Assembly: GCA_030867685.1 (NCBI GenBank)
Contig: JAQOWU010000008.1
Location: forward strand, 4,575,438-4,595,437
Reading direction: 5' to 3'
DNA length: 20,000 bases
Origin: Wickerhamiella versatilis
Lineage: Eukaryota
Below, piece after piece: positions 127 through 15,169 of the stretch (position 1 is the first letter of the stretch; every line of letters starts with the position of its first letter). Position numbers and translations under genes: made by a program. Under the pieces are notes generated by a model. It was not told where the DNA came from. It was given only the letters and a program-made list of their open reading frames with translations, and did not search any database.

Positions 127-1206
127 TCACTTGTTTTTCATCCATTCTAAAATAGTAGCTTTGATGGTAGCTCCGCTTTCTCCGTACTTATAGTTGTAGT
201 GGTTACCATCCAGGTAAGACAAGTTCAGGTTTGGGGTTCGCTCTCCGAGACCGTCTATCAAGATCTTAGTTTCAATGTTATCCCCATTCATCATCCAAAC
301 CTTCAATTTATCCACTGGCAGATACTGTCGATACATTTTACCGCTGATAATTCCAGGAATAAGTCGGTTGAAAACATACCATTGATATTTAAGCATTCCA
401 TGACTTGTGTCGGAATTTCTGCCCTTTGTGAGAGCCGTCAAAGCACTAGCAATGTTTGAGCCAAGTTGGTTGTTTAATGCTCCTGCATCTGCGGCGTGTA
501 GAGCTTTAAGAATATCAAGTAGCTTATCTGCGATCCATTGAGGGATACCAATCTGCACCAGCACTTCTGGGATGACGGGTATAGAGACTACTCCCATATA
601 GGAGATGGAAGCCCACTGCGCTAAAACTTGCGTAAGATTCTGCTGATTATGTACGAGATTTTTGGTCTGGTCTATCAGCGATTGGGTGGCCAGATCAAAG
701 GATGGAACTCCTACAGAAAAAATGGTCCCAATGGAGCCATTTTCCGGATGCATATCACAGTATTCTGAAGCAATAAATGGTGACCAAGCCTCTCCAAAAA
801 CAGCTACTTCCTTGTTTGGTGCCGCAGCTTCAATGACAGCACCCATATCTTCCGCCAGGTTAGGGAGACTGTAGTCCCATATGCCCCATGGATGCGCACT
901 TTTCCCGGAGCCACGCTGATCATATAATATCACGTGTAAGCCTCTATCGGCCATGTCTGCGGCAAAATCATCAAAAGTTTCAGCTGACACGGGCCATCCA
1001 CCTGTGATTATGAGTGTAGGATTTGTAGGGTCGCCATATTCGTAGTACGACACAGCTAGGCCTTGAGAATAAGTAAACTGAAGAGAGCTAGCATTCGGAA
1101 AATTGCTAGGTACATCAGTAGTAGACGAATCGTAAGGCGCTACTGTAGAGACTGTAACGCCGCCAAGCACGCCATGAACTAAGGTACACAACAAAGGCAG
1201 TATCAT
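127..1206 (-). CDS. Secreted alpha/beta-hydrolase fold protein, epoxide hydrolase/EphD-like, with a non-canonical catalytic elbow
   Basis: 359-aa ORF with a hydrophobic N-terminal signal peptide. Motifs GGWP (HGWP equivalent), YDQRGSGKS, YSLPNLAEDMGAVI, elbow GEAWS (canonical GHDWG) and a C-terminal His in LDGNHY. TATATAAA lies about 33 nt upstream. Confidence 0.85.
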   Translation of the reverse strand: MILPLLCTLVHGVLGGVTVSTVAPYDSSTTDVPSNFPNASSLQFTYSQGLAVSYYEYGDPTNPTLIITGGWPVSAETFDDFAADMADRGLHVILYDQRGSGKSAHPWGIWDYSLPNLAEDMGAVIEAAAPNKEVAVFGEAWSPFIASEYCDMHPENGSIGTIFSVGVPSFDLATQSLIDQTKNLVHNQQNLTQVLAQWASISYMGVVSIPVIPEVLVQIGIPQWIADKLLDILKALHAADAGALNNQLGSNIASALTALTKGRNSDTSHGMLKYQWYVFNRLIPGIISGKMYRQYLPVDKLKVWMMNGDNIETKILIDGLGERTPNLNLSYLDGNHYNYKYGESGATIKATILEWMKNK

Positions 1207-3163: not shown

Positions 3164-4504
3164 ATGTTGTTAACAATGATGCTCTTTCATGCCTTATTCA
3201 CTCTAGGCACTGTTCTCGGTGCTGCTATACAGAAGCGTGCTGCTCCAAGTGATGATGCGTTTTATACAGCTCCAGAAAACTTGACCAGCTATCGTCCGGG
3301 GGAGATTATCGACAGCCGCTCCGTTTTTTCATCGGTTATTCTAAGGGAGGTGACTCAAATAAAATATGCTACGACCAATACTCAGAATTCTTCTTCATAT
3401 ACGATAGCCACCGTGGCATCCCCAGATAATATTCAGTATCCGCAAAAACTTTTATCAATTCAAAATTGGCAGGACAGTGCCGGCAAAAATTGCGTGCCCA
3501 GTTATGGTTTGGTCACCGGTCTCCTTGGACCGGGCGGATTTACTACCTCGATTATCGATATGCCCATAGTTCTTGAATGGGCCTTATCAAAAGGCTACTA
3601 TGTTGTTGTTCCTGACCATGAAGGGCCCAATGGCGAGTTCATAGTGGGGCACACAGAGGGTCAAGCGGGACTAGATGGGATAAGAGCAGCTATCTCTTAC
3701 CTTAATCTCTCTGAAGACACGGACACGGCACTTTATGGTTATAATGGCGGCTCTCATGCCACAGCTTGGATGGCTAATTTACATGAGTTTTATGCTCCTG
3801 AGATCAACATTGTCGGATCAGTGACTGGAGGAACAGTTATTGACATGTATGCGATGTACAACAAGATTGCTGGTACCGTTTTCTCGGGGTTCATATTTCC
3901 TGTTGTTAATGCTTTTGCTGACGCTTATCCTGAACAGGGAGCACAGGTGCTGTCGCACTTCAATGGTATAGCCAACGCTACACTTTCCTATGCAGCCCAA
4001 GATAATGTATGCATCATCGGAGACCTACTTGGAGGCGCTTTCCGTAATATTGGCGATGAAAGTGATCTTGATGATTTTTTGTCCTTCCCTCCTTTAGTTG
4101 ATATATTCAATCGAGAAAGCTTACTCAACAACGTGTCAAGTCTTGCAGTATCGGCTCCAAAATTCCCTCGGTTTAACTATCATGCGCTTTTAGACGAGAT
4201 TGTGCCTTATCCAGCAGATGAGATGTACACCGAGCAGCAGTGTGCTCTTGGAGCAGATATCCAGTTCCAAACATTTGACCTGGGTGGGCATGCTACCACA
4301 ATGTTATTTGGTCTTCCTGGTGCTCTACAATTCTTGGAACAAGCATTTCTTGGGGAAGTTCCTAAAGTACAATGTGGTTCTCAAAATCCTCAGTCGGTCA
4401 ATATGAATTCATCAAATGTAGATGAAGTGATTGGTAAGGACACTGCCGATCGCATCCGTGCATTTAACGGCAAGAACACTACGTTGGGAATGATTTCCTG
4501 GTAA
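3164..4504 (+). CDS. Secretory lipase family (LIP; CalA / lactone esterase-like) protein with catalytic Ser replaced by Asn
   Basis: Signal peptide plus KR (Kex2-type) site. Motifs DDAFYTAP, QDSA..NCVPSY, VVPDHEGP, AGLDGIRAA, GYNGG (canonical GYSGG), YAPEINIVG, HALLDEIVPY (Asp) and GGHATT (His). The C-terminus is CalA-like (PKVQCG...DEVIG). The true start may be Met5 or Met6. Confidence 0.93.
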   Translation: MLLTMMLFHALFTLGTVLGAAIQKRAAPSDDAFYTAPENLTSYRPGEIIDSRSVFSSVILREVTQIKYATTNTQNSSSYTIATVASPDNIQYPQKLLSIQNWQDSAGKNCVPSYGLVTGLLGPGGFTTSIIDMPIVLEWALSKGYYVVVPDHEGPNGEFIVGHTEGQAGLDGIRAAISYLNLSEDTDTALYGYNGGSHATAWMANLHEFYAPEINIVGSVTGGTVIDMYAMYNKIAGTVFSGFIFPVVNAFADAYPEQGAQVLSHFNGIANATLSYAAQDNVCIIGDLLGGAFRNIGDESDLDDFLSFPPLVDIFNRESLLNNVSSLAVSAPKFPRFNYHALLDEIVPYPADEMYTEQQCALGADIQFQTFDLGGHATTMLFGLPGALQFLEQAFLGEVPKVQCGSQNPQSVNMNSSNVDEVIGKDTADRIRAFNGKNTTLGMISW

Positions 4505-4647: not shown

Positions 4648-6450
4648 TTAGTGAGCTGCAATTAGTTTTAGTCGTTCTTGGTTCCAAGAACTCAGGAGAT
4701 TATAGATAATCAAAGAGGAGACATAAAACATGATAGAAGGCGTGGCAAGATACCAAAATTGCAAAACGTCATCGCTCAGGACTTCTGTAGATTCAGCATG
4801 CCTATACATGCACATTAAATTATCAATTGAAAGCGAAATAATACACCATAATAGTATATATCCAGAGAAAAACATGGATTTGCTATCATTTGATTTTTGA
4901 TACTTTGATCTTTTCTTCATTATGTAGAGCACGAAAAATGCACCACCATATTCTATTGATACCAATGGAATAAAAAATAGAAAGTTTGTAAGACTATCCA
5001 TGCCATAAATGCTTTGAAAACCTAGCTGTCCACATATTTGAGATAATAAGAAGAGCCTGTTCCTCCAGTATGAAAGTTCATTTTTTCTATGCACTGAGAG
5101 CATGTTGAGTACTGAGCAAATTATACCCGTATGTGCCAAAACGTTGCAAGATAGTAGGAACCCATCGAACATCACTGATGATGATGCTGCAGTATATGAT
5201 AGTACTATCATAAGCAATACAGGAATTATAATCACGTTTTCCGGACATAGAACATGAGATCCAATCAAAGCATATGCGAAGTAAAAGAAAAATAGGTCGC
5301 AGACTAAAATTGGAAAATCAAAATACCCTCTAATGTACGAAAGACGGTCGAATATGTCATTAAAATCATTGATTATTTCATCTATTTCGAATTTGTCTCC
5401 CACTTTTCCTGCTGAAGCTTCATTAAGAAACCTGTACTTCCTGTCAACATGAATGCGTATGTACAGGTGGACAATAAAGTAACCAGTTAGAATGATTATT
5501 ATCAACCCATGGAGAAAAAGAAGCAACCTATCTTTTTCCACGACTGACTGGCGTGTGTATGGAATTTTGCACCTCACCGACGGCATATCAGTAGTTCTTC
5601 GTTCACTTGCTTCCCATGTGGCTAAAATATTGAACATAACCATCGCAGTAATACAGGTCATCACACAGATAATTGAAACTGTACCCTCTCCCCACCAAAG
5701 AGTGAAAGAAAGAGGATCCTCACGATATGCGGATGATGGATCTTCCCATGTCTCCATTTTCTGATGGACATTTGCAGCAGCGATTCCAAAAACTGAGAAA
5801 AATATTGTAGAAACATTTAGAGTTCTAACAATAACGATGTCCCTTGTGTCTCGGAAATAAACTTTTTTTGACCCAATTAATACAGCCATAGTTATCGAGA
5901 GGCCGCCCAGGGGTAATAATTGGAATAATTGGGTATATTCTAAGGATTTGGGAATATCAACCATAAAAGCTATCAAGCTTGGGAATAATATCAAAGCTAA
6001 GGAAAAATATTTCCACTTTGGTATCACGATCTTTGCCTCTGGAGACAAGGAATCCATTATTACGCATAGAAAACCCCAAAGGTTGATTAACTCACATATC
6101 CCTGACCCAATATCAAAGAAATGGGTACTCATTTTGAGCACTGTTAGTATAATACTTAGAAGTGACATTAAAGAATATAATGATGCAGTTATAATGGAAG
6201 GTAGTCGAGACCCAAATGGAATCAAGATTGCAGACAAACTGAATATAGAATATATAATAGGTCGTGACTGAGGGCAAAATCTCCAATAGAATGCGGTAGG
6301 ATCGTCATATATAGTGACTATAGATTCCAATGTAAATGCCAAAAAAACGAGTAGAGGAATGCGCTTCGTTCCGATATTACGCATTATACCATTTTTGTAT
6401 TCCTTATAATTGTCTGAGCAGGCAGCAGAGGGGCTATCCTGCATCCTCAT
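4648..6450 (-). CDS. Uncharacterised polytopic membrane protein (about 16 predicted TM segments)
   Basis: About 600 uninterrupted codons with many hydrophobic stretches. The ORF-track start at 6465 is TTG; the first ATG is at 6450. No family recognised. Confidence 0.75.
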   Translation of the reverse strand: MRMQDSPSAACSDNYKEYKNGIMRNIGTKRIPLLVFLAFTLESIVTIYDDPTAFYWRFCPQSRPIIYSIFSLSAILIPFGSRLPSIITASLYSLMSLLSIILTVLKMSTHFFDIGSGICELINLWGFLCVIMDSLSPEAKIVIPKWKYFSLALILFPSLIAFMVDIPKSLEYTQLFQLLPLGGLSITMAVLIGSKKVYFRDTRDIVIVRTLNVSTIFFSVFGIAAANVHQKMETWEDPSSAYREDPLSFTLWWGEGTVSIICVMTCITAMVMFNILATWEASERRTTDMPSVRCKIPYTRQSVVEKDRLLLFLHGLIIIILTGYFIVHLYIRIHVDRKYRFLNEASAGKVGDKFEIDEIINDFNDIFDRLSYIRGYFDFPILVCDLFFFYFAYALIGSHVLCPENVIIIPVLLMIVLSYTAASSSVMFDGFLLSCNVLAHTGIICSVLNMLSVHRKNELSYWRNRLFLLSQICGQLGFQSIYGMDSLTNFLFFIPLVSIEYGGAFFVLYIMKKRSKYQKSNDSKSMFFSGYILLWCIISLSIDNLMCMYRHAESTEVLSDDVLQFWYLATPSIMFYVSSLIIYNLLSSWNQERLKLIAAH

Positions 6451-6705
6451 CGACAACAAGCTCAATATGAGACAGCAGCGAGATAGAAGAAACCGTGATT
6501 AGTAACAAAATTCGTGCACCAGCACAGCAATGTATTTCTATGCATGAATATGTTAATAAGTCGGCTATAGTTGCAACTATTTAACGTTTGACAGATTGCC
6601 ATAAGCAACCATAATGTAGTAAGATAAATATGTTATGTGGTTGGACAATGAAAGAAAAAATATGTGCTCAAACCTGAATTCCGATGGTGATTATAGGACA
6701 AGAAG

Positions 6706-8588
6706 TCAGCATATACAACACTCATCGTGAGAGTCAGCAACCTCCACAGATTGAATTGGTTCTGAGGAACTCGCAGCAGACACTGGTGAAATATAACTGG
6801 GTTTATTTATGACTTCAGAAACCGCATTTACCATCTCACAAAGGGGGTTTTTGTCATAATCGAAAGGCCAGGTGTCTTGTGACACTATTTTTGAAATTTT
6901 GTCCATGGATTTGTTATCAAAACCAGTTATTTCGCTATCCATACAATTCGATTGCGTTTTCAAAAGAATTGCCAGATAAACTGCAATTGCACTGCGAACT
7001 GAAAGGCTTAAACTGCCAATTTCCTGGGTACAAGTGTCAAATAACAGCTGTGCAGCATTAGTGAGCTTTTGCAGTGAAGCCCGTCTTAATTCCAACGAAC
7101 AGAACACATTAAACGCTGCAAACGAATGAACAGCTATAACTGTATGGTAATATTCTGCCCTCAACTCGACCCAAGGAAAGGAGCACAGGATGCTTTGAAT
7201 ATCTCCTTTGCCAGAAGGGTTTATATTCCACAAATCTTCTTCTATGTGAAACCGCCAGGTCTCAAGCCGCTGATCGAGTCTAGTCATATCCTCAACGATT
7301 TGTTGCAATGACACCCTTCTTGTGCCTACTGAGCCGAGAAGTTTACACACATCATCATAAATAAGATGGATTCCAGTAAAATAATCGAAATTTTGAACCA
7401 CAATCACTGAAAGCGTCTTCTTTGATAGACTACTCACTCCTTTATCGGACAAAATAGGTTTAATCGATAAATGAATACCAAATGAGTAGTTGATAGCGGT
7501 TAATAATAACCATACATACTCACGGCGTCCAGATTCAGCTTTAGAATACTTTGAGTTTTCCTCCTCGCTGTCTAACCCAAGGCTTCTAGCCATAGCCACC
7601 ACTGTCTCTAGGAAATGCGGTACTGAATGAACAGAGCTAAAAACAGTCATCGTAAAAAGTAGTGACAAACACAACCTCACCTCTAGAAACCCGGGGTCGC
7701 TAAGGGTCAGAACCCGGAGTGTTTCCAGTGCTTTAAGATACGCACAGGCCTCTTGCGACCTCACTACGTATGGAACATCACTCTTTGATTCAGCTCTTAT
7801 TCCGTTTATGCCAATTATAAATATTGTAGAGAAAATTCCATTTCTGATATGTTCAGGATAAGAATTAATGCCAAGTGCAAGGTCCTCTGGTGAAATTAGG
7901 ACATGGAAAAAATTATCTTTCATTTTCATATAGATGTCAAGACACCTTTCAAAAATTATACTGTCATAAGTGACTATACTTGGAATATTGAGTAACTGTG
8001 AAAAGGATAACTGATAAGCTCTCCACATTGCTCGAGAATAATCATTAAGACGCTGCCACAACAATAGATCTCCTGTGGCTTGCAAGAGATGTGCTACATC
8101 CCCCGGTGTCAAAATTGAGCAGAATATATTTGGCGCATAAGATATATTGCTTAACGACATGTCGACAGTCTGTTGCTTAAAGCAGAAAAGTCCTTCATTG
8201 AATTCTCTTTTTTGAACGTATTTTCAGTGTCTGTACTAGGAGGTAACTCCGTATCTGGACGACTTCGACTTATCGCGTTTGGACTATGTTCATGTTCATG
8301 TTCATGCCCATGCTGAGTTGAGACTGAGACTAGTCTGGGAGGGCATATCGGTTCGTCATGATGGTCTCTTTCATATTTATTTTCCAAGTTCTCAATTCTC
8401 AACATGAGGGCAGTCCATAATTCTCTGGCAGGTGTCCGCGAGTGACTTCGATAAACGCATCGCAGTCCAGAACTGGAACAGTTTTCACATGCCGGAGAAG
8501 CTGCATCACAGCGTGCTTTACGTTGACGGCAACTCTCACACGCTATCGATGCACGTACTCGGCTTCTTTTTTCAACTCCCCCAGACAT
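6706..8588 (-). CDS. Zn(II)2Cys6 fungal transcription factor split into two frames (frameshift at about 8151-8223)
   Basis: 8588-8151 encodes CESCRQRKARCDAASPACENCSSSGLRC plus a coiled coil (RIENLE). 8160-6706 encodes a fungal TF middle-homology-like region (VAMARSLGLD...GRREYVWLL...SIKPIL). The two frames overlap and no convincing intron is present. Confidence 0.85.
8286..8312. repeat. (ATGTTC)3 hexanucleotide microsatellite encoding HGHEHEHEH in the transcription factor linker
   Basis: Directly visible as atgttc atgttc atgttc atgccc atg. Confidence 0.7.
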
Positions 8589-9095
8589 ACCAACAGGGCG
8601 AATCGATGATAAGTAATTATGTAGTCATACGTCACAGACTAGACTCTCCGTGAGAGATACATGATAGCGTAGATTGTTGTGGATCGTTGGAAAATACACG
8701 AGTATTTGACAGTTTGACAAAACCAAGCAAACCAGCTTACTAGCAATGTACCTTTCAAGTGAACTTCGTCGTTAGAGTTAGAGATAATGGCTTTAATTGT
8801 AGTAGTATGGGTTTGCAAATTGTTTAGAGAGCATAAGCAGGGGTGTTGGAGTGATCTATAAGGATCACTTGCTATTTTATAGGAGGAAGAGACGAGAAAG
8901 TGCTATTATGGGGTCTTTTCTTTTGAAGGTATTCGCGAATATACTGAACCATGACGGCATGTTCTAACTCTATAGTGACTGGTTGCCTCGTTATCATTAA
9001 TAACCTAACCCCTTGGATATAGTTTTCCGTTCGGCGCTTACCCAGTGTAAGTGGCTTAGGAGCCAGACCCAGATCTACAACCCTAGTAGTGATTG

Positions 9096-9116
9096 GCGGC
9101 TAACCTTTTCCGAAAC
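9096..9116. promoter_or_regulatory. Putative Zn2Cys6 binding site CGG-N10-CCG (GCGGCtaacCTTTTCCGAAAC)
   Basis: Inverted CGG triplets in the divergent TF/transporter promoter. A near-identical element lies at 13122-13141. Confidence 0.6.
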
Positions 9117-9225
9117 TATGACCTATAGTTACTTTTGGGTATATGTGAAGCTTAACAGCATATTATAATATATCACAATCATAATAATATAGTTATCTAT
9201 ATGTTAAGACTGCTTTCTCAATATC

Positions 9226-9231
9226 TATAAA
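9226..9231 (+). promoter_or_regulatory. Candidate TATA box of the MFS gene
   Basis: TATAAA 130 nt upstream of the ATG at 9356. Confidence 0.4.
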
Positions 9232-9280
9232 GTACGTGCGTGTCATTGACTGGTACTCCATCTGATCATATGACTAATAT

Positions 9281-9298
9281 ATGCCTCTCATACCCTAG
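9281..9298 (+). promoter_or_regulatory. Candidate uORF (MPLIP*) in the HOL1-like 5' leader
   Basis: ATG CCT CTC ATA CCC TAG lies between the TATA box and the main ATG. It resembles the short regulatory uORF of yeast HOL1 (MLLLPS*). Confidence 0.45.
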
Positions 9299-9355
9299 CT
9301 TTATCAGGTCAGTAGACTAGACTAAGCTGCACTGTCTAACAAGTATCAGGTTGCT

Positions 9356-11023
9356 ATGGAAGATATCAAGGAAGAAAAGAAGATTCCAGGTACATACCTT
9401 TTGTTTAAAAAATGTGATGATAAGGACGATGGCAGCGAACTCGAGCGTGATGGTGATATTATTCTATATCCCCAGCCATCAGCTTCACCAAATGACCCTC
9501 TAAGAATGCCGCGCTGGAAGAAGTATATTCAGCTTTCAATTATATTGTGGTATAAGGGGTTCATTGGAGCAATGTCAAATGTTCTCAGCGTCCAGAGCAA
9601 TGGATTTCTTGTTGAACACCCAACTTGGAATTACAACGACGTGAATATAGCAACAGCCATTACCTTTGTGGGTATCGGATGGGCTGGAGCTGCTCTAAAT
9701 GGGCCTATTCCCCATATTTGGGGGGTTAGACTGGAATACCTCTTGTGTACTTGCTACGGAATAGTGGGTTCGGCTTGGATGGCCAACATTAATTCTCGGG
9801 GCGATATAATAGGGTCACAGCTTTTTATTGGAATGTCTACAAGCGCGGCTGAGGGCCTTAGTCAATTGTCGATTTCCCAGATATTTTATCAGCATGAACT
9901 AGCGGACTTCATTGCATTTTATATTGTCAGTTTGGCGGCAGGTACCTATCTTGGACCTCTCGTCGGAGGGTACATAGTACAGTACCCTGGCTGGAAATGG
10001 ATAGGCTGGCACGGATTGATTTTTTCTTGTGTGACGCTTTTGCTTATATTCTTTTTGCTTGAAGAAACATCTTTCGACCGGGTCGTGTACAACCAGCAGC
10101 ATCGCAAACTGAGTGCATCTGAAGAAGAATGTATCAATGATTCAGAAGAGAATACATCCGAGAAACAAGAAGGAACTACCAAGGTGGAACCAAGGAAAGC
10201 ATCATTTTATGATATGGAGTTGAGAAAATCCTACTGGAAGCGAATCGCTATATTAACCCCAGCGGCAACAATAAAGGGATACGGGTTCAGACAGTATTTT
10301 GAACGACTGGTTTTGCAATGTAGAGTCTTTCTGTTTCCCGCGACCTGGTTTGCCGGTCTTCACTGGGGTTGGGGAATAGGGTGGCTAAGTTTCTATTTGA
10401 CCACTGAGGAAGAAGTGTGGATTCTTCCACCATGGAATTATGGCAGTACTGCCTTAGGAATAATGATGGTTCCAGTATTCATTGGTGCAGTTTTAGGGTG
10501 CCTATATTCGCTTTATGCCACAGACTGGTTTGTAAAGTATGTTGCCAAGCGTAACCACGGTATTTTGGAGTCGGAATCACGGCTTTGGTGTATGATGCCA
10601 TCGATTATATTTGGACCTCTAGGATTACTTTTATTTGGAGCAGGAACAGAGTACCGATGGTCCTGGCCAGTACCTTACGTGGGTCTCGCGTTTATTGGAG
10701 CAAACTTTGGGATCACAAGTGATATATCAATGACTTATCTTGTCGACTGCTACCCAGCTATGTCACTTGAGTCTGTTAATGGGATTTCAATGATATATAC
10801 TGTGATTGCATTGATTTTGTGCTTCGTAGTTGAACCATGGTTTAATATTGGCCAGATGAATACCTACATATCGTGCGCAGTTGTCCAATTCTTTTTATGT
10901 TGTCTTATAGTTCCAATGATATACACAGGTAATTTTTGGAGACGTAAGACAATGGGCTTATATTATCGCTTCATAGAACTTAGAGATACGATGCATGGTA
11001 AATGCACAAAGATTACTGAATAA
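9356..11023 (+). CDS. HOL1: MFS transporter of the HOL1 family (histidinol/polyamine/amine importer-like)
   Basis: 555 aa with about 12 TM segments. Hol1-like motifs GDIILYPQPSASPNDPL..PRWKK, SQLFIGMS..AAEG..QLSISQIFYQH, GTYLGPLVGGYI, EETSFDR and ESESRLW. This is a homolog call; orthology is not established. Confidence 0.88.
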   Translation: MEDIKEEKKIPGTYLLFKKCDDKDDGSELERDGDIILYPQPSASPNDPLRMPRWKKYIQLSIILWYKGFIGAMSNVLSVQSNGFLVEHPTWNYNDVNIATAITFVGIGWAGAALNGPIPHIWGVRLEYLLCTCYGIVGSAWMANINSRGDIIGSQLFIGMSTSAAEGLSQLSISQIFYQHELADFIAFYIVSLAAGTYLGPLVGGYIVQYPGWKWIGWHGLIFSCVTLLLIFFLLEETSFDRVVYNQQHRKLSASEEECINDSEENTSEKQEGTTKVEPRKASFYDMELRKSYWKRIAILTPAATIKGYGFRQYFERLVLQCRVFLFPATWFAGLHWGWGIGWLSFYLTTEEEVWILPPWNYGSTALGIMMVPVFIGAVLGCLYSLYATDWFVKYVAKRNHGILESESRLWCMMPSIIFGPLGLLLFGAGTEYRWSWPVPYVGLAFIGANFGITSDISMTYLVDCYPAMSLESVNGISMIYTVIALILCFVVEPWFNIGQMNTYISCAVVQFFLCCLIVPMIYTGNFWRRKTMGLYYRFIELRDTMHGKCTKITE

Positions 11024-11333
11024 TTACATAGATACTGTTTAAATATGCTAACGCGGAATAATGGCTTCAATCAACTAACTAGGATTATTACTATTGTATG
11101 ATACAAAGTGTCTCATTTATGGTTGAATTTCTGTGACAATTGATTGTCTGTCATGCAAAATCTGAGGCAACTCTCCAGCTTGTGCCAGTTGGTAGATCTT
11201 GAGCAGATGTTCAAGTTCTTGCTATAATAAATAGAAACATCAAACGTATGCATTTATTGGATTTTTGTTTTGCTTTTAGAGAAGTTACTAGATAAAAAAA
11301 TCCTAGTGTCTTTCATATATGATTTTCATTTCC

Positions 11334-12989
11334 TCATATAAGCTCAAACTCCTCACTAGGGGCGGAATACACACACTTTCCCGCAAGCCAAGTTTGTTGA
11401 ACCTGCCAGTTTTGAAAGTTTTGAGACTTAATATCTACTATTTTCTCAGGGAATATCACAAAATCTGCCGATTTTTTTACTGTAATACTTCCAAGCTCTG
11501 AGCCCCAGCCGCAAATATCAGCCGGAGCTTGGGTATAGGCATAAATTGCCTCATCAAAGCTCAGTGCATTCTCGATATACCATGCCTCCCCTTGCTTCTC
11601 CCTTAAAACCGCAGAGCTCAACTGAGATACTGGGTTCTCATAAGCTGTTGGCCAATCACTACCCAGTACAACTTTTGCACCACTTGAGAGCAATGTTTGC
11701 CATGCGTAACTGAGAGGAAGTCTTTGCTGTCCAAGACGCTGGGATTGGTAGCACCCTGCAGTGGCATGATTAGGTTGCACCGAAGCAACAATATTTCCTT
11801 CGCTGAAACGAGTAATCTGGTCCCGTTTAATCACTTCAATGTGTTCTATCCTGTTTGGAAGTGGGCTCATGGTTTTTGAGGAGCTATTTTCGAAAGCATT
11901 CAGTGCCATTCTCACACCCCTGTCACCAATAGCATGAATAGATACAGGGAATCCAGAATAGTTTGCTGCGGCGACAAGGTGCTCAAGTTCTTCCTGTCCT
12001 GTAATGGGCTCGCCTCTGAAGTGATCCACACATCTATCACTATATTCTTCGTCAAGCGCTGCGGTATAGTTTGAAAGTGTACCATCAACAACTAGCTTGA
12101 TGTATCCAAACTCAAATTTGTGATTGTTTTCTTTTGACACACCATCAAGATATTTTTTGTCACTCCCTCTTAGTTCTTGAAAATTTACTCTGTGACGCTG
12201 GTCGGGTGAAATTAGCATTAGACCAAACCATATGCGCATGTAAATAGGTTCCTTTTCACGAATTAGTTCATTATACAGATCGAAGTTGGGATTCATATCG
12301 TGCACGCCAGTCACACCGATACTGTTAAAATGAGTAATGATGTCTCTTATTTCACTTGTGGTCATTTTATATGCCTTTTTGAAGACTTCGTTATCTTCTA
12401 CGAGACTTATAGCTGTTTCCTTCAACTCACCTGTTAAACACCCTTTAGAGTCGTGAACCACCTCACCTCCTTCTGGCGCCTCTGTTTCGTCATTTATATC
12501 GAGAAGATTTAGTGCCGCAGTATTCAGCCATAACGAATGAAAGTCTATATCGCGTAATGCCATAGGCACATTGACTGTAGCAGCATCGACATCTTCACGA
12601 GAAGGAAGAACTTGTTCCTCCTTGTCATCTAAAATAGACAGATCCCACCTTCCACCGAATAGCCATTCCCCCTCCTTTTTAGTTTTTGCAACATTCCTGA
12701 TGAGTCCCAGCCATTCAGATTTCTTTGTAGAACCAAATAGATCAACGCCTTTGGCTAATTCTATTCCACCGATGAGATGGGTATGTGAGTCAATTATTCC
12801 TGGAAGGATTGATGCCCCCTGAACGTCCAAAACTTGGGTGTGGCTCGTGCCCTTGAGAGATTCTATATAAGCATTGGTGCCAACAGCCAGGAAACGCCCG
12901 TCCTTTACAGCGAAGGCTTCTGCTCGAGGTTTTGAAGGATCACTAGTTCGTACATCCCCGTTAATCACCACGAGATCTGGAACAAACAT
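11334..12989 (-). CDS. Metal-dependent amidohydrolase, YtcJ-like / Amidohydro_3 family (related to N-substituted formamide deformylase)
   Basis: 551 aa, intronless. N-terminus NGDVRT.DPSKPRAEAFAVKDGRF, then PGIIDSHTH (HxH), HSLWLNTAAL, TGELKE, KLVVDG, IHAIGD, RIEHIE, GSDWP, YT...A and GSITVKKSADFVI. Metal-ligand motifs appear intact. Confidence 0.93.
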   Translation of the reverse strand: MFVPDLVVINGDVRTSDPSKPRAEAFAVKDGRFLAVGTNAYIESLKGTSHTQVLDVQGASILPGIIDSHTHLIGGIELAKGVDLFGSTKKSEWLGLIRNVAKTKKEGEWLFGGRWDLSILDDKEEQVLPSREDVDAATVNVPMALRDIDFHSLWLNTAALNLLDINDETEAPEGGEVVHDSKGCLTGELKETAISLVEDNEVFKKAYKMTTSEIRDIITHFNSIGVTGVHDMNPNFDLYNELIREKEPIYMRIWFGLMLISPDQRHRVNFQELRGSDKKYLDGVSKENNHKFEFGYIKLVVDGTLSNYTAALDEEYSDRCVDHFRGEPITGQEELEHLVAAANYSGFPVSIHAIGDRGVRMALNAFENSSSKTMSPLPNRIEHIEVIKRDQITRFSEGNIVASVQPNHATAGCYQSQRLGQQRLPLSYAWQTLLSSGAKVVLGSDWPTAYENPVSQLSSAVLREKQGEAWYIENALSFDEAIYAYTQAPADICGWGSELGSITVKKSADFVIFPEKIVDIKSQNFQNWQVQQTWLAGKCVYSAPSEEFELI

Positions 12990-13099
12990 TTACGTGCAAG
13001 CGCAAGTTCAAGTACAATTTTAAACGGACCAAAGACTTGACAGTTATGCTTACGAACTACACTTTATTTCTCCAAGGACACCGGATCTTAATTCCTAGG

Positions 13100-13106
13100 T
13101 GAGTCA
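13100..13106. promoter_or_regulatory. Gcn4/AP-1 consensus site TGAGTCA upstream of the amidohydrolase
   Basis: Perfect TGA(G/C)TCA heptamer about 110 nt upstream of the ATG at 12989. Confidence 0.45.
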
Positions 13107-13121
13107 GCATACTGGGTACAA

Positions 13122-13141
13122 GCGGCATACTTTTCCGAAAC
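13122..13141. promoter_or_regulatory. Putative Zn2Cys6 binding site CGG-N9-CCG (GCGGCataCTTTTCCGAAAC)
   Basis: Shares GCGGC and the 12-mer CTTTTCCGAAAC with the element at 9096-9116. Confidence 0.6.
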
Positions 13142-13739
13142 CAAAGCCGGATTATGTAAGATAATGTGCCTTGTATGGGAATGAGCTTGTCAGTCAGTGC
13201 ACAATGTAAATCACTTCTCTAGCGGCTGGGGTCATGCTATCTGAGACTAGTTGGACGGTGAAAGATAGTTTATCTGGTTCCCAGGAATTATGAGGGCAAG
13301 CAAGCCTCATTCAAGCATAGTATGATAGAGGAGGTCAAGACTGTTTTCTCAGTGAATACTATATACTCTGTAGCACCGCCCCAGCTCAGATACATATAGA
13401 TTATTAGTACATTGGTACTGGTAGTTATAGTCTACAGAAATACAGTATCGTATTGCATATGTTATCGACCTCGTGATAATCTTGACCGAGGCCCTTTCTC
13501 GGGCAAGGGTGGTTAGGCTATGTTTTGGGAACTACCATCGTCGCTTGGGTTGGCTGGTTTATCAAACCCGATTGATGTGAAGTATCCCTGGAGCTTAGTG
13601 AATAAGAATCATGGCTTGAGAACATTAATTTTTAGCGGCTGAAGGGATTTAATTACCTGAGACTAGTAATATTAGCATTTTGTAACTAGGTGTTGAAGAA
13701 ACAAAGTCCACGCAAGTTCTTCAACTATATTATATTTTT

Positions 13740-14587
13740 TTAAATGGAACACGCAAATATTTAAACGTTATTACATTCCACTGTGATAAAATCATCGTCT
13801 TCAAGCCCTGTCTTGTGCTTTATTTCTTTATAAGCTAAATCCAGAATATCTCTGCTCTGAGGATTTGTTTTTTCCAGTTATGATACGGTCCCGAATTCTG
13901 TAATGAACTTGTTAGGTCAATAAGCTCGGCATTTGTTCAAACAAGTTCAAACGTCTCCTGCGGACGTAGACAGTCATTATCATTTATAAACCGGAATTCT
14001 TGCGTAAACTGACTAGGTAGGAGCTTAAAAGAAGGATACAATCATGTATAATCTCCAATCCCTTATCCCAATATGGAGCTAACTCGCCATAAGCAAGGTT
14101 GTAAATAACTTTTCGTGCTTCTGTCAGTTCCGTTCCAGTTTCTTTCTGGAACACTGACGGTAAGTAACAGGACCAAATAGCTAGGACTCTATTGGGTTTC
14201 AAAATCTTGTGTGCTATATTAAGGAAGTTTGGGTGAGTCAAGTAGTGAAATGCCTTGGCCACTATCAGTAAATCAACGCTATGTGGTGTAAACATGCGAT
14301 TCAGTTTAGTGTTTTCTCCAACGAGGAATTCAATGCTCCTAGGTAAGTCTCTCTGGTCACATGCTTGTTTAATCATTACCTCAGATCTGCCAATACCGCA
14401 TACCTTGTCTGCCATCGGCGCAAGGACTCTGGTAGCCTGGCCTGTTTCACATGCCACATCAACCACCACACTTGGCTTGACGTCACCAATATAACTGGCT
14501 AAGTGTTCATAAAGCGAGTGTAGGTAATCTGGTCGAGATTCTTGGTATCCACTTGCATCATTAATTCGGGTCCGAGAATGATGACAT
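13740..14587 (-). pseudogene. Crg1/Tmt1-like SAM-dependent methyltransferase pseudogene
   Basis: The ATG at 14587 gives MSSFSDPN*; a 1-nt shift continues DASGYQESRPDY...VVDVACETGQAT...SVDLLIVAKAFHY...LKPNRVLAIWS...LAPYWDKG. Further shifts and stops lead to GPYHNWKK / NPQSRDILD...ITVECNNV*IFA. At least 3 frameshifts and 2 internal stops; motif I is degenerate. Confidence 0.85.
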
Positions 14588-14812
14588 CCTTCGTGGAATT
14601 CGACGACAAATTAGTACCAGATAATAGAGTCTAATGTTAAGATCAGATTGTGCGGAGGCCACGAATGTCTCGCAAAAAGTGGCTAAAATGCTGTAAAGGG
14701 GATATATTTATTACTTACATACACATACGCTGTGAGGATGCCGTACATATGAGCCTAGCAGAAGTGCCGATGTCTGTCAGCTGGCTAGGACAACCCTAGC
14801 ATCATAATTAGC

Positions 14813-15169
14813 TTATCTCACCTGGACACTAATTGACTTGTATTCCCAGGTTGAATTTTGGAAGCTTTGTCCGTAGATAAGTTTTAATTCACCGGTACCT
14901 GGAGTTTGGCCGATGAATGTATATATTGTGTGTCCACCGCTGCCTATTTGGCCAGCGTTGTTATCCTCCGGTTGATACCATTCATTGACCAGTATAAGAT
15001 TGCTGGGTAGCTGCTCGATCATCCACGAATACCCGGTGGTAGGGTTGGCTTCGAGCTCCAGATCATTTGTCTTACCTAGTGTGGCGTTAAACACCTCTGG
15101 TGTCGATATTCCCATGGAAGTTTGTAGTAGAAGAGTAAGAGTTATCACGGACGCAAATTTAGAAAGCAT
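14813..15169 (-). CDS. Secreted chagasin-family cysteine protease inhibitor (MEROPS I42)
   Basis: 118 aa with a signal peptide. Hallmark loops LEANPTTGYSW and GSGG, followed by F.....G.GELKLIY. Confidence 0.9.
   Translation of the reverse strand: MLSKFASVITLTLLLQTSMGISTPEVFNATLGKTNDLELEANPTTGYSWMIEQLPSNLILVNEWYQPEDNNAGQIGSGGHTIYTFIGQTPGTGELKLIYGQSFQNSTWEYKSISVQVR

Follow-up and report, generated by a model that had tools for sequence, protein, structure and literature searches.

The locus described here raises the question of whether a regulator, a transporter and a metallo-amidohydrolase that lie side by side in a yeast genome work together, and of where the enzyme among them came from. It belongs to a 20-kb stretch of DNA on contig JAQOWU010000008.1 (G+C content of approximately 40%), the whole of which is referred to as the window, with coordinates counted from its first base. 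The three-gene stretch under study spans positions 6706-13141 and comprises genes for a Zn2Cys6 regulator, a transporter of the major facilitator superfamily (MFS) and a YtcJ-type metallo-amidohydrolase. A preliminary description of this DNA had proposed that the three genes serve to import and hydrolyse an amide of an amine or polyamine.

Organisation of the locus

The whole regulator gene occupies positions 6706-8588 on the minus strand, where it is read in two overlapping frames in the window. Its start at 8588 and that of the transporter gene at 9356 are divergent, and the gene coordinates leave an intergenic region of 767 bp between them (8589..9355). The transporter gene (9356..11023, plus strand) codes for a protein of 555 amino acids, of fungal type, that matches Pfam family MFS_1, and the amidohydrolase gene (11334..12989, minus strand) for a YtcJ-type protein of 551 amino acids that matches Amidohydro_3. 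These two genes are convergent, with 310 bp between the stop of the first at 11023 and that of the second at 11334. By coordinates and Pfam domains, a regulator, a transporter and an enzyme are physically adjacent, and the gene layout and content given in the preliminary description are borne out.

Contigs of four public sequencing runs from four studies (X1, X6, X10 and X12) were aligned to window positions 6500-13200; the window itself may derive from X1 and X6. The junction between the transporter and amidohydrolase genes (11023-11334) was bridged by contigs in all four runs, which excludes contamination or chimeric assembly. Each run carries the stretch at a level of at least 99%. Three of them are labelled as food or food-fermentation metagenomes and the fourth simply as 'metagenome', and these labels lend no support to the flower- or bee-associated host that had been guessed at earlier. 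CTG codons of the window fall in alignment columns occupied by Leu, Ile or Val, for example at residue 318 of the MFS transporter (Leu in 25/25), a pattern that argues against a CUG-Ser yeast. The host is an ascomycetous yeast in which CUG is read as leucine.

Origin of the enzyme

The amidohydrolase is of bacterial descent, a conclusion that is well supported and that we hold with high confidence. Sequence searching returned 2,495 relatives, of which the best 120 were considered. The top three are yeast-type proteins (97, 73 and 64% identity) on contigs of up to 0.65-1.16 Mb, and below them every named protein in this set is bacterial, with identities of 47-51% for Acinetobacter, 47% for 'Candidatus Tokpelaia', 46% for Yokenella and 42-43% for gammaproteobacterial metagenome-assembled genomes. 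An exhaustive HMMER search of 1.84 billion representatives recovered 24,509 family members at E ≤0.001. The scores form a cliff: one representative at 557 bits is followed by seven from 443 down to 333 bits, and the remainder score at or below 275 bits. In each of the eight best representatives, 23-42 residues precede the match.

A tree of 75 rows was computed with a quick IQ-TREE search, with support values from the Shimodaira-Hasegawa-like approximate likelihood ratio test (SH-aLRT) only. Its rows were the window protein, three yeast relatives, 11 close relatives with names and 22 without (taken from the best 120 of the sequence search and 150 of the HMMER search), 13 of 80 named genome loci, and 25 more distant representatives. 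The yeast clade (SH-aLRT 100) joins the unnamed proteins P0004 and P0031 (97), and the resulting group falls within a clade of 22 rows that also contains Acinetobacter, Yokenella and Tokpelaia (100). The latter is in turn placed inside a 24-row clade (97), and that one inside a 38/39-row clade which includes Ensifer, Sinorhizobium and the gammaproteobacterial metagenome-assembled genomes (96/99). The nesting of the yeast sequences among bacterial ones is thus carried by five successive branches with SH-aLRT values of 97-100.

All 16 bacterial sequences of alignment A1 carry an N-terminal extension of 21-42 residues, basic and then hydrophobic, which by these features we read as a signal peptide. 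The window enzyme and its three yeast relatives have only 0-3 extra N-terminal residues in the same alignment. The G+C content at third codon positions of the enzyme gene is 0.375, for a range of 0.336-0.454 among its neighbours. The gene, proteobacterial in origin and coding for a YtcJ-type enzyme that was secreted or periplasmic, was taken up horizontally in an ancestor of at least three yeast lineages; the yeast protein has lost the signal peptide, its gene has taken on the base composition of the host, and it lies tail-to-tail with a native transporter gene. The preliminary description had not seen this acquisition.

Linkage of the enzyme and transporter genes may extend to one further lineage. 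The 73% identical enzyme relative (P0002) and a 69% identical transporter relative (P0143) are each found on one contig of 19,033 bases, and they probably lie on the same one. A scan of metagenome contigs with an alignment of the four yeast enzymes returned two loci, neither of them from yeast.

Family, fold and catalytic residues

The enzyme matches Amidohydro_3 (PF07969) over the entire profile (positions 1-472 of 472; E 4.4e-79; 267.6 bits for a cut-off of 29.7). Residues H69, H71, K298, H352, H383, H408 and D445 do not vary in either of two alignments, of 19 and of 93 sequences. By analogy, we take H69 and H71 (the HxH motif), the bridging K298, two further histidines and D445 to be the metal-binding residues. 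Equivalent ligands are listed for YtcJ-like enzymes in PMC10699109.

An AlphaFold2 model of high predicted quality (predicted local distance difference test score 94.3; predicted template modelling score 0.93) displays a TIM-barrel amidohydrolase fold with a composite beta domain. Its best Foldseek matches are 3igh (E 4e-39) and 3icj (E 3e-38), with TM-scores of 0.69-0.71 on the query, and 3icj was also recovered by sequence search (E 5.5e-30). On residues and model together, the enzyme looks catalytically competent. Since these closest solved folds are uncharacterised, the structure gives no substrate, and no NCBIfam equivalog matched the bacterial subfamily to which the enzyme belongs.

Within the wider family, the N-substituted formamide deformylase NfdA is a characterised YtcJ-like enzyme that hydrolyses the N-formyl group from a primary amine. 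Its name was encountered here only as an automatic label on one member of an Acinetobacter cluster. Epsilon-lysine acylases, which cleave an N-acyl group from an omega-amine, are classed as YtcJ-like (PMC10699109). The amide substrates of Amidohydro_3 enzymes are highly varied and include those of bile-salt hydrolases, according to bioRxiv 10.64898/2026.04.05.716592.

Genomic context of the bacterial orthologues

An orthologue was found in 7 of 201 sampled genomes of the genus Acinetobacter (E ≤1e-60), while 400 other genomes of the class of the Acinetobacter reference gave no match at E ≤1e-90. The seven Acinetobacter loci (L001 and L094-L099) were examined for their neighbours. In all seven the orthologue is followed downstream, in this order, by genes for a TorF-type porin, a carbamoylase-type amidase, an omega-aminotransferase and an aldehyde dehydrogenase; in L097 the series is interrupted by one inserted open reading frame (ORF). 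These downstream neighbours were named by NCBIfam in L094 only and assigned to Pfam domain families in L001; those of the remaining loci were matched by ORF order and length. The amidase of L094 scored 554.6 bits on the model of the allantoate-amidohydrolase subfamily (cut-off 452), and its aminotransferase 735.6 bits on PRK07036 (cut-off 618). An ORF of the size of an APC-family permease comes next in the five loci whose stretch extends that far. Beyond it stands an ORF of 361-386 amino acids, whole in L094, L096 and L099 and truncated in L095 where the stretch ends, which in L094, the one locus scanned, is agmatine deiminase AguA (549.7 bits; cut-off 381.8).

Directly upstream, four loci carry ORFs for a MocR-type regulator, a 4-aminobutyrate (GABA) transaminase and a succinate-semialdehyde dehydrogenase. 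These were matched to families in L001 only, where the transaminase scored 735.2 bits (cut-off 725) and the dehydrogenase 679.1 bits (cut-off 646.35); in the other three loci they were matched by ORF order and length. The corresponding catabolic route runs from agmatine via N-carbamoylputrescine, putrescine, 4-aminobutanal and GABA to succinate. On these assignments the Acinetobacter orthologue sits, in 7/7 loci, in an island for the catabolism of agmatine, putrescine and GABA. This is circumstantial support, independent of the yeast locus, for that part of the preliminary description which named an amide of an amine or polyamine as the substrate. A secreted amidohydrolase whose gene adjoins that of a porin could free agmatine or a diamine from a conjugated form.

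In L095 (genome G153, positions 8690-12274) two tandem copies of the orthologue, of 573 and 567 amino acids, precede the porin gene. The Ensifer/Sinorhizobium homologue (40% identical) has other neighbours. They include, adjacent to it, an FAD-dependent oxidoreductase of the aminophosphonate/pipecolate oxidase type and, at a distance of 5 kb, a permease resembling PotI/PotC whose score of 290.5 bits is below the cut-off of 476.

The transporter

The transporter matches MFS_1 (PF07690; E 1e-20) over residues 74-485. Its named relatives are all fungal and uncharacterised, at 35-42% identity, and come from Leotiomycetes, Orbiliomycetes, Sordariomycetes (Pezizomycotina thus being included), Schizosaccharomyces, Candida boidinii and Brettanomyces. 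Two relatives are closer, P0142 (77% identity) and the already mentioned P0143. By this distribution of relatives, the transporter is a native fungal protein. The nearest ESM Atlas cluster bears the automatic name 'putative histidinol and sodium permease' (score 0.99). The earlier description of the protein as HOL1-like stands as far as the MFS family is concerned, and for the rest the cluster name provides a lead, not a test. Hol1 of S. cerevisiae is a high-affinity importer of polyamines that also takes up cationic drugs, as set out in bioRxiv 10.1101/2024.09.20.614104.

Contigs of 68 kb and 73 kb, from runs X1 and X6, match the transporter gene in the patches 9800-9846 and 10457-10488 only. 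Together with the 77% identical P0142, these patches suggest that a paralogue of the transporter is probably present elsewhere in the same genome. A crude hydropathy threshold counted seven transmembrane segments, a figure that was set aside as unreliable.

The polyamine-sensing upstream ORF of HOL1, reportedly described by Vindu et al. in 2021, is said to end in Pro-Ser-stop. None of the 14 ATG-started ORFs in the 767-bp leader of the transporter gene has this ending, the nearest ending in Ile-Pro-stop. An ORF at 13290-13395 (minus strand), which starts 406 bp before the amidohydrolase gene, ends in Leu-Pro-Ser-stop and resembles the HOL1 element in this respect. We judged it to be a chance occurrence: ATG codons intervene, and by our estimate such an ending is expected in about one in eight such sets.

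The regulator

The N-terminal part of the regulator, a frame of 145 amino acids (8151..8588, minus strand), contains the zinc cluster (Pfam Zn_clus, PF00172; E 4.3e-10), with the six cysteines spaced C-X2-C-X6-C-X6-C-X2-C-X6-C at the N-terminus. The C-terminal part is a frame of 484 amino acids (6706..8160, minus strand) to which no Pfam domain was assigned. A fungal-specific middle homology domain was sought by Pfam in this part and in the whole of the intact protein P0191, for which Zn_clus was the only family returned.

The regulator frame is split by a T6 homopolymer (A6 on the gene strand) at 8208..8213 that is one base short. All four public runs contain one extra T behind position 8207, with the reservation already given for X1 and X6. 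P0191 is an intact regulator of 627 amino acids that is 100% identical to the 484-residue part of the window; its residues 1-127 are identical to the N-terminal frame, and it reads ...TFKKREFNEG... across the break. A sister lineage, whose neighbouring proteins are 96-97% identical, likewise has an intact regulator (P0368; 633 amino acids, 97% identical). An intron was ruled out as the cause of the split, because of the overlap between the frames and because the recorded protein is recovered exactly once a single base is added to the homopolymer. The preliminary description had implied a broken regulator. The gene is not dead: its frame runs uninterrupted in the four run assemblies, in P0191 and in P0368, and we attribute the frameshift in the window to an error in the homopolymer or to a private mutation.

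Two further observations were made on this gene. At position 8409, in the N-terminal part, the window has G where three of the four runs (X6, X10 and X12) have A. A third record, P0369, has a different N-terminal start and opens in another frame just upstream of the 8409 region, which suggests a second break in another assembly and hints at a second homopolymer as its site.

Upstream sequences

The preliminary description had pointed to an element shared by the upstream regions of the transporter and amidohydrolase genes. The 12-mer CTTTTCCGAAAC does occur before both genes, at 9105-9116 and 13130-13141, and nowhere else in the 20-kb window; this uniqueness is a circular test, because the pattern was taken from the same data. 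Between the two upstream regions, a longest shared word of at least 12 bases was obtained in 29 of 300 dinucleotide shuffles and a local alignment score of at least 12 in 68 of 300, so that the presence of the element stands and its distinction from chance does not.

GCGGC precedes both copies of the 12-mer, four bases away in the first and three in the second. The extended element ahead of the transporter gene, GCGGC-N4-CTTTTCCGAAAC (9096..9116; 240 bp before the start), holds CGG-N10-CCG, and that ahead of the amidohydrolase gene, GCGGC-N3-CTTTTCCGAAAC (13122..13141; 133 bp before the start), holds CGG-N9-CCG. Such symmetry fits the site of a Zn2Cys6 dimer and would explain the differing orientation of the copies relative to the two genes. 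This is a post hoc reading, and the whole window has five CGG-N9/10-CCG sites.

Other features of the window

The left flank of the three genes has an accessory look. It comprises genes for an alpha/beta hydrolase (127-1206, minus strand; Pfam), a secretory lipase of the LIP family (3164-4504, plus strand; Pfam E 4.6e-50) and a multi-pass membrane protein of 600 amino acids that matched no Pfam family (4648-6450, minus strand). On the right, a frame for a methyltransferase dependent on S-adenosylmethionine (Methyltransf_25; E 9e-10) occupies 13984-14610 on the minus strand and measures 208 amino acids from stop to stop; its first ATG leaves 143 amino acids, and an intron, a frameshift or decay may cut it.

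An ORF of 118 amino acids with a hydrophobic N-terminus (14813-15169, minus strand) belongs to the chagasin family of peptidase inhibitors, I42 (Pfam E 8.1e-19), and sits 1.8 kb from the amidohydrolase gene. As this family is mainly known from protists, bacteria and archaea, the ORF is a second candidate for foreign origin. Homologues occur in 55 of the 201 sampled Acinetobacter genomes at identities of just 23-35%, which does not show a donor link. Scans of the window for tRNA genes and Rfam families gave no match.

Discussion

We propose the following working for the locus. The transporter would import a cationic N-substituted amine, the candidate cargoes being diamines, polyamines or agmatine derivatives that are acylated or carry some other amide linkage. 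The amidohydrolase, now cytosolic, would split the amide bond to yield free amine and acid for nitrogen and carbon, and the regulator may induce both genes via the CGG-N9/10-CCG site ahead of each. As a combined statement, a chimeric three-gene locus that imports and hydrolyses an amine amide under one regulator is plausible, just short of what we would call probable.

A fuller version is rather unlikely to hold in all its parts. It would have a food-fermentation yeast lineage domesticate a periplasmic amidohydrolase for conjugated agmatine or polyamines, with its export signal removed, beside a Hol1-like importer (maybe a duplicate) and a dedicated regulator, and so live on biogenic amines in acylated form; the substrate of the bacterial subfamily would be defined as well. 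N-acetylputrescine, N-acetylcadaverine and acyl-agmatines accumulate in fermented foods and serve as example substrates. If the unit works as proposed in the first place, a eukaryote would have wired a bacterial enzyme into native transport and regulation to gain a new nitrogen source, and a function would be given to an uncharacterised amidohydrolase subfamily of bacterial agmatine/putrescine islands. It could also matter for how biogenic amines and their conjugates are removed from fermented foods.

The three genes may instead be chance neighbours, the bacterial gene having landed beside a regulator-transporter pair with a job of its own, so that the enzyme would act on some amide or related C-N compound unconnected with the cargo of the transporter. 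We regard this as a serious possibility, tilting towards doubtful; were it so, the locus would add another case to the documented acquisitions of bacterial genes by yeasts. Fungi have many divergent Zn2Cys6-MFS pairs, the shared 12-mer lies within what shuffling produces, and the window, with its secretory lipase, alpha/beta hydrolase and chagasin-type inhibitor, suggests a region that collects miscellaneous genes. Against fortuitous adjacency, the enzyme has lost its signal peptide, its substrate must therefore enter the cell, and an importer alongside is useful. The probable sharing of one 19,033-base contig by the 73% identical enzyme and the 69% identical transporter, and the presence before both genes of an extended motif of Zn2Cys6 type, also argue for a working unit.

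Several further points weigh against such a unit. The search gave no transporter above 42% identity to go with the 64% identical enzyme relative. The more distant relatives yielded no regulator orthologue, and the 484-residue part has relatives only in its own cluster at 90% identity, which holds one protein. Synteny at about 70% identity is expected of any neighbours and is therefore no proof of a functional unit. Among the listed public runs with the stretch, none is recorded as RNA. The Acinetobacter context comes from a single genus and amounts to about one or two independent observations, with Ensifer as a weak second case; the bacterial enzyme works outside the cytoplasm beside a porin, and its use in yeast may differ. 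MFS transporters of this type (the DHA1 group) include exporters.

In another explanation the locus is a detoxification unit: the enzyme would hydrolyse an amide, urea or carbamate that is harmful to the cell, be it a xenobiotic, a mycotoxin or an antimicrobial, the transporter would export the compound or its product, and the regulator would be of the drug-responsive Zn2Cys6 kind. We consider this improbable. The enzyme does resemble molinate hydrolase and triazine hydrolases in sequence and fold, but the resemblance is weak and remote, at 12-14% identity. The wide range of Amidohydro_3 substrates (bioRxiv 10.64898/2026.04.05.716592) would accommodate a toxic amide, and relatives of this MFS type reportedly include drug:H+ antiporters (PMC4021133); the neighbours of the bacterial orthologues, however, are genes of agmatine, putrescine and GABA nutrient catabolism and not resistance genes.

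Vertical fungal inheritance with near-universal loss, in which the likeness to Acinetobacter would stem from slow evolution or from transfer from fungus to bacterium, is very improbable and was already disfavoured by the analysis: an Atlas cluster of some 90 Amidohydro_3 proteins, mainly from Ascomycota, does exist and was not placed in the tree, many of whose rows are unnamed and which holds no labelled fungal family members, but the yeast clade lies several well-supported nodes deep among named Proteobacteria, no named fungal protein occurs among the best 120 of the 2,495 relatives, scores fall from 557 to at most 275 bits outside the secreted proteobacterial subfamily, and transfer from fungus to bacterium would require the gain of a signal peptide in many proteobacterial lineages.

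Comparison with known systems

Bacterial descent of the enzyme and its proposed role beside a native importer can be set against several known systems. The nearest solved proteins, the YtcJ-like 3icj and 3igh of Pyrococcus, share with the yeast enzyme the full-length Pfam family, the metal ligands and the fold. They have no known substrate and are 23-25% identical to the yeast enzyme, which falls into a narrow subfamily of secreted proteobacterial proteins, made up of eight 50%-identity representatives that score at least 333 bits. The Streptomyces epsilon-lysine acylases SmELA and SgELA (PMC10699109) are members of the same superfamily and carry out the same N-acyl hydrolysis that is proposed for the yeast enzyme. 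Unlike it, these two and NfdA are bacterial and stand outside any yeast locus, and the likeness is drawn at the level of the family.

With Hol1 of S. cerevisiae, importer of polyamines and histidinol, the transporter shares the MFS_1 fold family, and the likeness comes by way of the automatic name of its Atlas cluster, whereas its closest named relatives are the uncharacterised fungal proteins described above. The bacterial agmatine deiminase route consists of AguA, N-carbamoylputrescine hydrolase, putrescine aminotransferase, aminobutyraldehyde dehydrogenase, GabT and GabD. The Acinetobacter orthologues are embedded among its genes, but none of these partner genes is present in the yeast window, and the amidohydrolase has no textbook step in the route.

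Acquisition of bacterial genes by budding yeasts is documented in general (PMC11140947). No description of this particular transfer or cluster was found in the literature, and the supplementary tables of large surveys of horizontal gene transfer in yeasts may list it. The bacterial acquisitions of Wickerhamiella and Starmerella likewise involve a metabolic gene set among native genes, ameliorated in composition and restricted to a small clade. In contrast to those cases, the enzyme has here been retargeted to the cytosol and stands beside a native transporter and regulator.

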